NCBI RefSeq assembly: GCF_054482525.1
Contig: NZ_CM137006.1
Reading direction: 5' to 3' (one strand)
DNA: 64,000 nt
This document shows positions 3,001 to 9,000 of this stretch, in pieces (within the stretch, counting starts at the first letter, position 1; every line of letters starts with the position of its first letter). A program made the position numbers.

Positions 3001-6000
3001 AATGAAGATTCAATTTTGCAGCATTCATCACAAAATAGAAATTTAGTATTTTATGTCAGAATACTTCACATGATAATAAAAACCTGTCTGGATTTACTGC
3101 ATGGCCAGACATTACAAAATACAAACGCCATAAACTTCATTCAGCCTTCTTGCTGTCCGGTAACGGAGGCTGTTTTTTCGTTACGCCTTTCCCCGGCAGC
3201 ATCAGTAGCAGTAATTTATAGATTCTACGAACTGAGACTGTCTGTCCGGGGAGAACATACGCATCCCGGCGCAATGCTCCGGTCATTTACAACCTGCTTC
3301 TGATCATAAACGCCACGATCCTTGGCTCTCACAGATTTCGGGAGATGAAAGTTAGTTTACAGGCAGAAACCAGTCACAATATTGACATGAGAAAGATTTT
3401 CTGTTAAACAAAAAAATACATGAAATGATATAACATCACAAACTGGAGTTTTTATGGCAGAATCCGGGTTTATTTCTCTCGAATTATCCCGCTCACAGGC
3501 GCCTGTTACAATTAGCAAGACAGCTATACTCTTTGCAGAAGCAGACAATGATACCCCGGAGTCAACTCATCTACATTGCGTTGGTGGTATCACTCATACC
3601 GTAAATGGTGTTTTTAACGATATTGCAGAATTACTTCCGCGATTCATTAAGACGCACCGTCGGGATAATGGTCAACCCGCAGTGGCTATCCATGACTGGA
3701 ATGTTTCATACATTGAAAAAGGCAACGATGCTTCTGCTATTGTTTACTTCACAGAATCAGGCTCAAGTATAACCGTCCGTGAATCTTACGAAGACATAAT
3801 AGCAAAGTTTCACGCTCTTTAGTCAACACCTGTGCTGAGAATTAAAGCAGGGGCAGGATACAATTATCCTGCCCCTGCCGTTAAAGATTATACAATGAGT
3901 ATTACTTTTTAATATTTCGGTGGTGGGTTATAAAGATGTGGTCTCCTCAGAGGATCGTTTATGGCAGATAGTGCAGATATTGCTTATGAAAATGAACAAT
4001 TCAGCATGAGCATCAGACTAAAAAATCGTATCCGGAATAGACTCCCTGAAACGGGATTCTGCTATAACTGCGGAGAACCTGTTAAGACAGGATTGTTTTG
4101 TGATGGTGACTGTCGGGAAGATTATGAGAAACGTGAACGATTTGGAAAAATAAATACTGACAATGTTTAAAAGCAATACAATTACTGATATCTCTTTCAG
4201 ACTTCAGAATTAAAGAAAACTGCCCGAATGTTATCCGGAAAGCAGCTGTAATACCTCATTAACTGTTATCACAAATAAAACGCATACCTGTTCCATATGA
4301 AATTTGTCACGCCTGACTACATAACATTTATTATCCGGAGCACTGGGATGCCCGTGACACAGCATGCACAGAAATCCCCGTCGCAACAGCCTTTATCAGA
4401 AAACCATCTTTTTACCGGTCTATGGTGTTGCAGAGATATTTAATACTGACGCCGCGCATACCATTTTTCTCCATCGCATTGTAAAGATGCGCACATACCG
4501 TCTTCATGGTTATCCCCAGCCGGTCTGCCAGAAAGGTAAACCCGTAGTCATGGAAAACAACCCCGAAGACCACCACCATCTCTGTCCGGGTCAGTGGTCT
4601 TGCCGTATGTCCGAACAGCCACGCCCCACGGCGGATGGTTTGCCTGATATCTGTCAGGCATCTCACAGAGGAAACAGGAATGACAAGAAACCGACGCCCA
4701 CAGAACATAGAGTATGTAAGCCTTTCCAGATTACGGTCACAGAGAATCACATAACTGTCTTCGGGAAGTGTAGTGGTCAAGTAATACTGGCCACGGTTTT
4801 ACAGTAAAAATGGTACCTGTTCCCGGACTCTTCCGGTGTCAACCCACCGTTATAATGGTGAGGTCTGACACTGTTGTAGTAGTTCAATATGTAATCATTA
4901 ATTTGCTGCCGGGCCTCGTCCTTGTCGACGTAACCATTCGCTGGCACCCATTCTGTTTTCAGACTGCGGAAGAAGCGTTCCATTGGGCTATTATCCCAGC
5001 AGTTTCCCCGCCGACTGACACTTTGCTTTATTCTGTAACGCCAGAGAATTTGTTGATATTTCAGGCCTGTATACTGGCTTCCCTGGTCGCTATGGAACAT
5101 AACATCATGTGGTTGACCACGCGTCTCATAGGCCATCCGCAGGGCATCGCTTATCAGTGCAGTATCGGCATGTGCGGACAGACTCCAGCCGATAACCCTG
5201 CGGGCAAAAAGATCCATCACAACCGCCAGATAGCACCAGCAATTTCCGGCCCAGATATAGGTAATATCTCCACACCATACCTGGTCTGGCTCGGGGACAG
5301 CGAACTGGCGCCCGAGCAGATTCGGCAAGCAGGTATGCTCCTGACGGGCATTTTTGTACTGATGTTTTCCGGGCTGACAACTGCTCAGATTCAGATGTTT
5401 CATCAGCCGCCCGGCACGGTAACGGCTCATCGGGACGCCGTTTTGGGTCAGCATGTCAGCCAGCGTGCGCGCTCCCGCAGAGCCCCGGCTTTGGTTCCAC
5501 ACCCGGCGTATTTCACTGCACAACCTGACATGCACCGGATTCACCGTATCGCGTCGTTTTTGCCAGTACCGGTAACTGCTGCGGTGTATTCCCAGAGCAG
5601 AACACAGACTGACAACGGTGTGGCTGCCACTGAGTCTGGCAACTATCGTGAACCGTTCAGCGAGTCGGACATCAAGAGTGCAGTAGCCTTTTTTAATATC
5701 GTATTTTGTTCCTCCAGGCGGCGAACCTGCTTTTCCAGCTCGCGGATACGTTGCTGGTCTGGAGTAATCGGTGTGGCAGAGGGGGCAATCCCCTGGCGCT
5801 CTCGTCTGAGCTGACGTACCCATCTCTCAAGAGTGGTAGAGCCGACATTCATCGATTCACTGGCTTGTCGATATGAGTAGCCCTTATCAACAATCAGTTG
5901 CGCACATTCCAGTCTGAACTCGGGGGTGAAAGTACGTTTGGTTTTCTTGTTCATTAAGTCACCTGTTTTGTGTTGAGGTGAGAATATCACCTTTAATCAG

Positions 6001-9000
6001 GTGACCAAATTTACTGTGCCACTACATTCAGTTGCCTGATAGTGGCTGCTTCCGTATCCCATGCACCATCACTGATACCACCGGGACCCCGGATTTTATC
6101 CGGTCCCCGCGGACTGACAGGGTTTGTGACACCTGAGTCATATCCGATGTAAACTTCATTTTCACGGGTTGTACAGGAAAACTCCCCCTGTGCCATTGAG
6201 TTCTGATGTGTGCCCTTCGGCCACAACTCCCACCGTCACGGCACCAGTTGCATCTGACGCCGACCAACTGCTGAGAGCCATGCCGTTTCCGGCTTTGTCG
6301 GCAACGCATGCTGCAGTTCCCAGCGATGCGAACTGGTCTGGCATGCATTCACGAACCAACAGCAGTGGTGCTACGTCCGGATGCAATTCGCATGAGCCCC
6401 AACCGCGGTTGTAAGTTCAGCAGCCCGGGCCTCTGCTCCTGGCACAGTCGCATAAGTATTCGACACCGTGCGACACCATTACCTTCTGGATACGCCACGG
6501 ACCCGTCACCCTACGAAAACGCCGGAACACCGGCAATCAGCAAAGGCAGCAGTGATAAAAGACTGATATATTTCCTGTCATTATTTTTCATATTAATTTA
6601 ACTCCTGATTAACTGTTTTTTATTGATATGAGAAAGTAATAGTTGCAATAGCCTTCACACTTCCAGGTGTAGTTGCATCAGCAATTTTTATATAATTGGC
6701 TCTTAAATTGATATGTGGATTTACCTCTCCCCTGTAATCGGAGAAGTGCCATTGACTGCCATTTCCTTTCACAGGGGAGTCTTCACCATAGCTGATGGCA
6801 GTTACATCACTGTCTTTATATAGCCTGATGCCAAATCCTTTTGCAGTGGATTCACTGCTTAAGGTCAATATATCTGTTCTGTTCACTGGCTGTGATGCAT
6901 CTGTCAATGTAGCATAAACATCAGTTCCATCCGGGCATTGTAGGTGTATGTCAATTTTACCTCCCTGTATTTCTTTATACAAAGATGTGAACTGTGATTG
7001 ATATACGGTATTTAATGGCACCACATAGTTTTTTTGCCCCATGGTACATGTCTGACTCTGTACCTGAATGCGCCCACCATTTAACATAACAGGTGCTGTC
7101 AGTCCTTTATTATTTAAACTTGTACGTTTTGCTTCCAACAAAATAGTACCAAGCTGCCTGGTGGGTATTGTTATATATCCATTGGGTAATCTTCCCGTTG
7201 CGACAAAAGCAACAAACAAACGAGCTCCGAAGCTTGCTGTCGCACCGTTATAAGTATTGGGGTTTGTATTGGCACCTACAGGGTCAATATATATACCTGA
7301 GCTATTTATGGGGACCAGAGGCGTTGTGGGCCAATAGCCCGCCATGCCAATAATAATACCCAGTCCGGATACACCAATATCATAGATATCAAAATCAGAT
7401 GAATCACGGCTGTTTCCTTGATGGAAAGTATACGTAATACTTCCAATTTTAGGCAGTGCGGGTGTAAACTTTCCACGCATCAGAGCGATGGCACCGCCAT
7501 TAAAAACATACTGGTTACTTGTTCCCGCCAGCTCTCCTATCACCCGGGGATAGGTATGGGCATCAGCAGGACCAATCACAACACCTGGCAATGTGGATGT
7601 ATTAACCGCTATCTGCGAAGGCACATAATCATCCGGACCCGCTACCGCCAGCTTAGGGAGTAAAATTAAAAACAATGGTATGAAAAAGATTCTTTTCATG
7701 TTTTTTCCTGATTAGGGTGCTGTATACACAGAACAGGAACGAGCTGAGATTGCATATCATCTTTATTGTGTGCAACATGATATACAAATGAACATCTGTC
7801 TTTATTATCTGGTCCCCATACAACGCTGAGATGACCTTTTTCAGGGAGTCCCCTGGTAAATACCTTCCCGGCCTGAGCGACATATCCGGCCAACTGTCCA
7901 TGTTCATCCAGAACTTCAGAAGCCATTGGAGGGGGATTGCCAGTAGACATACGAATATCAAATAACAGACTTCTTCCTGTTTTAGTGTCAAATTTCACTA
8001 ACGTGGCGCTATTAGCACGAGGAATGATTTCCTGCTCCGTCGCCGATAATTCAACATTCAAATCTAAATTGGAGGGATCGATGCTAATTTGATTTTTCTC
8101 ATAGGGTGTAACATAAGGAACAACACCATTTCCCCAAAAATCCAGACGACTACCAGAGGCATTATTGATGACAGCCCCCTGAGCTCCTTCAGCATGGATA
8201 ATGGCAAAAGTATCACTCAGGTCATTACTCAATGTCACTCCATAGGGGTGTGCGACCACTGCTCCCGACGCACCAAATGACCTTTGATTATTATTCTGAG
8301 TATCATGCCCGACTGTTGTGGTTATATTTACATAAGGTGAACGATAACCCCCATTCATTGCATAACCGGAAGGCCCGTTTTCCTGGCTGTTTCCTGAAAT
8401 ACCATAAGAGAACTGATTATCCTCCCCGCCAGTACCACTAATTGATGTCTGAATACTATTTTTCTCTTCTTTGCTATAATTTAAAACAGTGGAAAACACC
8501 GGGCTTTGAACACTTCCTCCCAGAGGGAGAGTAAAATTAATATAAAATCTGTCATCACGGCGTTGTTGCTCATTATCTCTTGACTGAGACAATCCAATTT
8601 GATAGCCGAGTTGTTTCCAGAAGTTGCTGTACCCCATCTGGTATTCATTACGACTTCCTTTATGTCCCCAGTAATTATAGGTTGTTCCTGTTAAATACAT
8701 CCCACCCCATTTTTCACCTAATTCCTGGTTGATTGAAATCTGGAATTGATTCCTGGGACGATAAAACGCTGTACTTTTTACAGAAACATCATCAATAAAC
8801 GCGTTGTGATTAGCTGATAGCGCATCCTTCAGATGATAAAAATCTTTTGATGAATAACGATAAGCCGCCAGAGTTATATTTGTGTTTGAGGCTGGAATAT
8901 TGATGCTATAACTTGAGTGCAGACTATAACCTTTACGCGTTACACCGGAATACCTGAATGCTGTTCTGGACAATGTAATGTCAGATGCTATAGCACCCAG

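Follow-up and report, generated by a model that had tools for sequence, protein, structure and literature searches.

Is the short open reading frame (ORF) that abuts an insertion sequence (IS) downstream of an F17-like fimbrial operon a gene in its own right, or is it what the IS has left of a longer one? The question is raised by positions 4412 to 6030 of a 64,000-nucleotide stretch of DNA (NCBI RefSeq assembly GCF_054482525.1, contig NZ_CM137006.1), which we refer to in its entirety as the window and which is a classical sfa/foc-ucl-cnf1-hly pathogenicity island of uropathogenic Escherichia coli (UPEC). An initial annotation, made from the sequence alone, had described a fragment of a LuxR-type regulator gene next to an IS911-like element and had suggested that loss of this regulator could affect fimbrial gene control. 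It is very probable that the ORF is the 3' three-quarters of a gene for a two-domain regulator of 158 amino acids (aa), the 5' end of which was lost to an IS that replaced 892 bp.

Comparison with IS-free alleles

When the two flanks of the IS were searched separately, they were found in about 400 genomes, for the most part with 98-99% identity and no IS. As the IS-free reference we used L002 (NZ_CP069500.1), which carries the allele of the sequence type 131 (ST131) type and whose flanks are 98.5-98.8% identical to the window. Here the regulator gene is intact (477 bp, 158 aa; L002 2893-3369, minus strand) and is followed toward uclD by an ORF of 68 aa, a decayed autotransporter gene and uclD itself. 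In a local BLAST comparison, window position 4768 corresponds to L002 position 3249 and window position 6027 to L002 position 4142, and therefore the 1258-bp IS substitutes for 892 bp (L002 3250-4141). Codons 1-40 of the regulator gene were lost in this way, as were the 62-bp spacer upstream of it, the 68-aa ORF and, from the autotransporter pseudogene, the 3' part. Insertion of the IS into the 5' part of the gene, or replacement of that part, had been proposed in the initial annotation, to be checked against IS-free alleles; these alleles bear the proposal out, with the 5' part missing from the window through replacement and an 892-bp deletion and not through simple insertion.

The same block is intact in two outgroup strains, the bovine and deer-derived E. 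coli L003 and L004 (93% and 85% identity), in the order YadA-like trimeric autotransporter (421 aa), 68-aa ORF, the 158-aa regulator (LuxR158), a second regulator (LuxR171), yqaE and mscS. Since the outgroups carry the intact block, the change is a deletion in the lineage of the window. The 68-aa ORF that went with it (L002 3432-3638, minus strand) is conserved between the autotransporter and the regulator, with a ratio of nonsynonymous to synonymous substitution rates (dN/dS) of 0.29 between alleles of extraintestinal pathogenic E. coli (ExPEC) and of the outgroups, and it has no match in Pfam or NCBIfam.

The part of the regulator gene that was kept, codons 41-158 and the stop, is 98.8% identical to L002 at the nucleotide level, and its 118 codons encode the identical protein, with no nonsynonymous and two synonymous differences. 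The lack of any amino-acid change indicates that the truncation is recent, that is, evolutionarily shallow. The ORF begins outside this remnant: as had been noted initially, its N-terminal codons lie in the terminal repeat of the IS, the spurious TTG start (4780-4778) and the first four codons being part of the inverted repeat at 4769-4794. In the RefSeq annotation by the Prokaryotic Genome Annotation Pipeline (PGAP), 4412-4768 is labelled 'LuxR family transcriptional regulator', incomplete and missing its N-terminus. The only family match of the 122-aa ORF is a C-terminal GerE/LuxR helix-turn-helix (HTH) at residues 73-105 (E = 0.0019, 18.3 bits), below the gathering cut-off of 23.5 bits for Pfam GerE (PF00196), so that the initial description of the ORF as recognisable by this domain only was accurate.

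Could the 122-aa ORF nevertheless be a native, full-length, stand-alone LuxR-HTH protein next to which the IS merely happens to lie? It is uninterrupted and has a legal TTG start, and public databases contain 'LuxR family, partial' entries of 98-122 aa. These short entries, however, either carry the label 'partial' or stem from the very allele that is truncated here, the first four codons belong to the IS, and the IS-free alleles encode 158 aa. Native homologues of about 120 aa, which the initial annotation had named as the finding that would speak for this view, did not turn up; all full-length relatives are 155-169 aa long and share a conserved N-terminus (MxIIxxTRxxYLExGL) that is precisely the portion absent from the window. 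A native 122-aa form is thus almost certainly not the explanation.

In the outgroup L004, the LuxR171 gene (L004 3798-4313, 171 aa), also of the LuxR type, lies directly downstream of the 158-aa gene, and its product passes the Pfam GerE cut-off with 39.7 bits. Only its first ~26 bp remain in the window (4260-4285) and in ST131-type islands. The latter also contain an extra 457 bp (L002 2274-2730), missing at window positions 4250-4252, in which a transposase and an endonuclease/exonuclease/phosphatase gene have left relics.

The insertion sequence and the origin of the lesion

The IS is an intact IS3-family element that points the same way as the truncated gene (Table 1). Its orfB frame matches the NCBIfam model NF033516 'IS3 family transposase' with E = 1.7e-92, and PGAP labels the element 'IS3 family transposase, programmed frameshift'. 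The terminal inverted repeats are 26 nt long, imperfect (73% complementary) and end in TG...CA (TGTAGTGG.../...CCACTACA). The element had been placed correctly, except that its outer end lies at 6026, slightly inside the 6030 first given. Copies at ≥99% identity were found in 95 records, and a variant of 92.4% identity is widespread.

The designation 'IS911-like' fits the ends and the frameshift motif, and the terminal 60 nt are recognisably alike. Over 466 nt, on the other hand, the element is only 65% identical to the IS911A fragments of strain K-12, which rules out IS911 itself, while the nearest relative named by PGAP is ISEc31 at ~91% identity (~9% divergent). Judged by sequence identity, 'ISEc31-related IS3-family element' is the more accurate name and 'IS911-like' is acceptable as a loose description. 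The element shares with the IS911/ISEc31 group, and with the IS3 family, the two-ORF transposase (orfA/orfB) with its A6G -1 frameshift, the DDE (rve) domain and the TG...CA inverted repeats. In contrast to sister copies, which yield 3-bp target duplications, the copy in the window has none, as already observed initially: it is bordered by AAG (4766-4768) on one side and TTC (6027-6029) on the other. The duplication is absent because 892 bp have been lost, so that one end of the IS now abuts DNA lying 892 bp from the target of the other end.

Two such sister copies, 92% identical to the IS of the window, interrupt the same gene elsewhere. In L005 (strain 18AR0366) a simple insertion (L005 4116-5373) in the orientation of the window has duplicated CTC at L002 3282-3284, and in L011 (equine strain SWYH.B349aT) the element (L011 3001-4258) lies in the opposite orientation with a 3-bp duplication of L002 3314-3316. 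Since IS3-family elements usually duplicate 3 bp and related copies have done so in this very gene, one may ask whether the window, too, carries a simple insertion whose duplication was later mutated away and which involved no deletion. However, in the IS-free allele as well as the outgroups, 892 bp separate the sequences that adjoin the two ends of the IS, and the 68-aa ORF is missing from the window along with the 120 bp that encode the N-terminus of the regulator. We consider this explanation as good as excluded.

Replacement with deletion is best explained as follows. The ancestral locus consisted of the autotransporter pseudogene, already decayed, the co-oriented 68-aa ORF, the upstream region and the intact regulator gene, and the 1258-bp ISEc31-related element then ended up in place of 892 bp. 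Because the sister IS normally duplicates 3 bp, the copy in the window must have gone through a second step. Either the IS inserted normally and a deletion next to it followed, or two co-oriented copies underwent homologous recombination, the choice between the two being a matter of inference. With codons 1-40, the N-terminal domain lost strands beta1 and beta2 together with helix alpha1.

Table 1. Positions of the truncated ORF, the IS, the predicted protein elements and neighbouring features (window positions unless residues are indicated)
Feature	Position	Strand	Basis or remark
122-aa ORF, TTG start	4412-4780	-	ORF list; next frames on the same strand are the overlapping transposase orfB and orfA
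3' remnant of the regulator gene, codons 41-158 and stop	4412-4768	-	Comparison with intact L002 2893-3369 (-)
IS3-family element, intact, 1258 bp, oriented as the truncated gene	4769-6026	-	Inverted repeats, rve, HTH_Tnp_1, NF033516
IRR (right-end inverted repeat, 3' end of transposase), source of the TTG	4769-4794	.	Repeat search
IRL (left-end inverted repeat), TGTAGTGGCACAGTAAATTTGGTCAC in transposase sense	6001-6026	.	Repeat search
orfA	5643-5990	-	ORF list, Pfam; HTH_Tnp_1, E = 7.9e-13
orfB frame, -1 frameshift fusion to orfA	4777-5823	-	rve DDE integrase core, E = 8.3e-29
Slippery heptamer A AAA AAG (A6G), programmed -1 frameshift	5688-5694	-
Eib/YadA-like trimeric autotransporter pseudogene, 5' remnant (~200 codons, frameshifted)	6027-6609	-	3' part lost in the 892-bp deletion
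uclD, tip adhesin, last gene of the F17-like (Ucl) operon; context, outside the lesion	6620-7699	-	PDB 7MZP UclD, E = 2.9e-132
N-domain elements of the 158-aa protein	Residues: beta1 2-5, alpha1 9-18, beta2 24-26, beta3 44-49, alpha3 51-60, beta4 65-70, alpha4 77-86		AlphaFold2 model
C-terminal HTH of the 158-aa protein, residues 100-140	Residues: helices 100-111, 116-123, 127-140		AlphaFold2 model
sfaC/papI-like FaeA-family regulator	2666-2950	+
Small hypothetical gene, 122 aa, conserved	3454-3822	+
Small hypothetical gene, 69 aa, Cys-rich	3961-4170	+	Weak DUF2116 treble-clef match
IS110-family transposases	16318-17451 and 39848-40924
IS66-family transposase	17561-19129
cnf1	22049-25093
hlyD	26040-27476
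hlyB	27495-29618
hlyA	29689-32763
IS3-family remnants, weak	~38.7-41.3 kb
fecA	45809-48133

The intact 158-aa protein

A word-indexed homologue search with the intact protein returned only E. coli proteins at ≥73% identity. An exhaustive HMMER search of 1.84 billion representatives gave just 29 clusters at E ≤ 1e-3, with the full-length relatives at 36-50% identity and the named cluster members from E. coli and Citrobacter farmeri. No characterised protein is among these named members, and no experimental data were found for the protein or its relatives. More distant relatives adjoin genes for RTX-like proteins or type I secretion systems (T1SS).

The domain search of the full-length protein that had been suggested as a check does return GerE, at 17.6 bits and thus below the cut-off of 23.5 bits, with an E-value that falls, like that of the remnant, in the range of 0.002-0.003. 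Within the family, 6 of 17 members match Pfam GerE at E ≤ 0.05 (best 1.1e-4) and five match Sigma70_r4_2; the family profile matches the GerE structure 1FSE with E = 9.5e-4, and there is a weak match to NCBIfam BglJ (E = 6.7e-4). An AlphaFold2 (AF2) model built from the alignment of the relatives (predicted local distance difference test, pLDDT, 87; predicted template modelling score, pTM, 0.81) consists of a four-stranded alpha/beta N-terminal domain of ~90 residues and a C-terminal HTH (Table 1). In a Foldseek search of the PDB with this model, the 43 best matches were all of the NarL/FixJ type, RcsB, EvgA, FixJ, DosR, VpsT and VraR among them, the best having E = 7e-4 and a probability of 1.00 with a template modelling (TM) score of only 0.46; the predicted HTH is superposable on NarL/FixJ-type effector domains. 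The name 'LuxR-type' is therefore supported by the predicted fold and by sequence signals that are consistent, if weak and below the Pfam threshold.

The N-terminal domain is probably a degenerate receiver. The model has only four strands, against five in a (beta-alpha)5 receiver fold, and Asp51 after beta3 (in the motif 'CD') is conserved in every family member covering it; the acidic pair of beta1 and the Lys region of beta5 are missing. According to the model, the truncation takes beta1, alpha1 and beta2 out of the core of this domain. The dN/dS of the regulator gene between ExPEC and outgroup alleles is 0.42.

In being small and combining an N-terminal alpha/beta domain with a C-terminal GerE-type HTH, the protein resembles the atypical NarL/FixJ-type regulators of E. 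coli whose N-terminal domain is a degenerate, receiver-like one, such as RcsA, BglJ, GadE and EcpR. Unlike these atypical regulators, it is very divergent, reaches no named family at the cut-off, and belongs to a tiny clade (the 29 clusters) with an N-terminal domain of ~90 aa and four strands only.

Fate of the remnant

On the strand of the remnant, a consensus scan of the DNA upstream revealed no promoter-like site, and no Shine-Dalgarno sequence precedes the TTG. The ORF at 4412-4780 is a pseudogene and not a gene, since promoter, ribosome-binding site, authentic start and the first 40 codons are all absent. As judged from this anatomy, the regulator would be functionally lost in the lineage of the window. 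An outward hybrid promoter arising from the right end of the IS, where a -35-like hexamer (TTGACC) is present, was considered and rejected, as neither inspection by eye nor the scan found an acceptable -10 in the flank.

The TTG overlaps the TGA stop of orfB (4779-4777) as TTGA, a geometry of translational coupling that is probably coincidental. Read-through from the co-oriented IS together with this overlap might let the remnant be expressed as a neomorphic or dominant-negative DNA-binding protein, all the more as the kept codons are unchanged and include the HTH and the conserved 'CD' motif. We regard this as very unlikely. Unchanged codons are equally expected from a recent event, there is neither a Shine-Dalgarno sequence nor a promoter-like site, and translation of the orfB frame requires a rare frameshift; moreover, residues 1-40 belong to the core of the modelled N-terminal domain, so that the truncated domain is unlikely to fold.

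Some points weigh against our reading of the ORF as what remains of a LuxR-type regulator gene after IS replacement. The loss of function is read from gene anatomy, and the remnant is co-oriented with the transposase and joined to it by the TTGA overlap, which might permit a truncated 122-aa protein to be made at a low level by read-through. The LuxR/GerE assignment comes from sub-threshold scores of 17.6-18.3 bits and from a weak Foldseek match (E ~1e-3, TM 0.46). Finally, separate junction queries of 5426 complete E. coli genomes, the set used throughout, revealed no intermediate allele in which the IS occupies one junction while the 892 bp are still in place: the two junctions occur in 42 and 43 genomes, always together and never one alone. 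Since no intermediate was found, any order of insertion and deletion, and any mechanism for them, is tentative.

Distribution and repeated disruption of the regulator gene

The arrangement of 4200-6620 was found at 99.9-100% identity in 43 of the 5426 genomes; carriers of the IS allele include UPEC 26-1, the asymptomatic bacteriuria (ABU) strain 83972, NCTC9022 and the probiotic strain A0 34/86. The regulator gene itself is present in 403 genomes and full-length in 349 of these. At least five independent IS-mediated disruptions have hit the same 477-bp gene. Besides the insertions in L005 and L011 described above, another IS3-family element in L012 (EC14; L012 3445 onward) is accompanied by loss of the ucl side, and in L013 (EC45) ISEc12 lies within the 3' end of the gene (L013 506-2808). 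Three IS ends fall within 67 bp at the 5' end of the gene, which could reflect a hotspot or chance. A target sequence resembling the inverted repeat was considered as the cause of this clustering and discarded; only a 7-nt match (ACCTGAT) was found by eye, which by a rough estimate is about what chance would give.

The feature is thus an ordinary IS-generated pseudogene in an IS-rich island, already annotated alike by RefSeq in 43 complete genomes. Its value, a modest one, is that of a natural knockout: lineages like ABU 83972 lack the regulator and the 68-aa ORF, whereas ST131- and UTI89-type islands keep both. This contrast could be used to ask whether the unstudied regulator is among the 'other factors' that control Ucl fimbriae or island genes. 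What remains mildly interesting is that the intact gene has been disrupted by IS elements at least five independent times and that it represents a clade of degenerate-receiver/LuxR proteins which is tiny, unstudied and restricted to E. coli.

Relation to the Ucl operon and to adhesin modules

The remnant does lie downstream of an F17-like operon, as initially described, the gene at 6620-7699 on the minus strand being uclD. Between them, the autotransporter remnant matches the intact 421-aa YadA-like gene of L004 and L003 (L004 5310-6575) with 85% nucleotide identity and is recovered by tblastn in pieces in three frames; the intact homologue matches EibD (2XQH) with E = 6.7e-44, and the L002 copy (L002 3765-4705) is decayed. 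The boundary between the ucl operon and this remnant lies ~18-34 bp upstream of the former autotransporter start codon. About 85 bp downstream of the uclD stop, within the former 5' coding region of the autotransporter, there is a terminator-like hairpin (6535-6520, minus strand), GC-rich and followed by a T-run, which is conserved in L002. Between uclD and the regulator gene, the IS-free allele has 1.36 kb of autotransporter pseudogene and the hairpin, and no ucl operon is annotated at the L003 or L004 locus examined. The native partners of the regulator in non-ExPEC E. coli are the members of an adhesin module (autotransporter, 68-aa ORF, LuxR158 and LuxR171) and not ucl. Given these neighbours, the hairpin and the 1.36-kb gap, a role of the regulator in Ucl control is unsupported, and with it the initial suggestion that its loss could affect fimbrial control, the gene belonging to a YadA/Eib-like adhesin module in strains without ucl.

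Regulators of the PapX/FocX/MrpJ type have their genes at the 3' ends of the fimbrial operons. The 158-aa gene resembles them in lying downstream of a fimbrial operon (ucl) in the same orientation. It differs from them in that it is not the last cistron of the operon nor always found with it, belongs to another fold family, and occurs without the fimbriae in other strains.

A study of Ucl regulation names OxyR, does not mention the regulator gene, and states that further regulators are still to be identified (PMC9236248). This leaves room for the view that loss of the regulator is adaptive in ExPEC, through control of ucl or other island adhesins in the manner of PapX or MrpJ, and is not neutral decay. 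Five or more independent IS disruptions, of which three cluster within 67 bp at the 5' end, and the co-oriented position downstream of uclD are compatible with such selection. Yet 349 of the 403 carriers keep a full-length gene with a dN/dS of 0.42, pseudogene and hairpin separate it from uclD, its native context lacks ucl, and IS-rich islands gather such insertions neutrally. We therefore hold adaptive loss to be improbable. Improbable, too, is a broader picture in which the 158-aa protein would represent a nearly E. coli-restricted degenerate-receiver/LuxR-HTH clade that travels with cassettes for surface adhesins or secreted proteins (Eib-like autotransporter, RTX-like protein, T1SS); in ExPEC its gene would be transcribed by read-through from ucl, and it would cross-regulate adhesins or motility. 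If this were true, repeated inactivation by IS elements would mean either that loss is selected for or that the 5' end is a target hotspot for IS elements.

Precedents for such island regulators are known from UPEC, where IpuR-UpaE and HyxR are LuxR-type regulators tied to adhesin or autotransporter genes (PMC6083910). By description, not by sequence, the present gene is similar: a small predicted LuxR-type regulator co-oriented beside an autotransporter adhesin gene in the accessory genome. A difference from these systems is that the autotransporter upstream of the regulator is here a trimeric (Eib/YadA-like) one; nor is there any sign of an invertible switch. The names IpuR and HyxR do not occur among the named cluster members of the 158-aa family that were inspected.

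Island context

The toxin genes, fecA and further IS elements of the island are listed in Table 1. The two small hypothetical genes at 3454-3822 and 3961-4170 have the fimbrial regulator genes on one side and the LuxR remnant on the other, and they are found next to sfa-linked as well as pap-linked islands.

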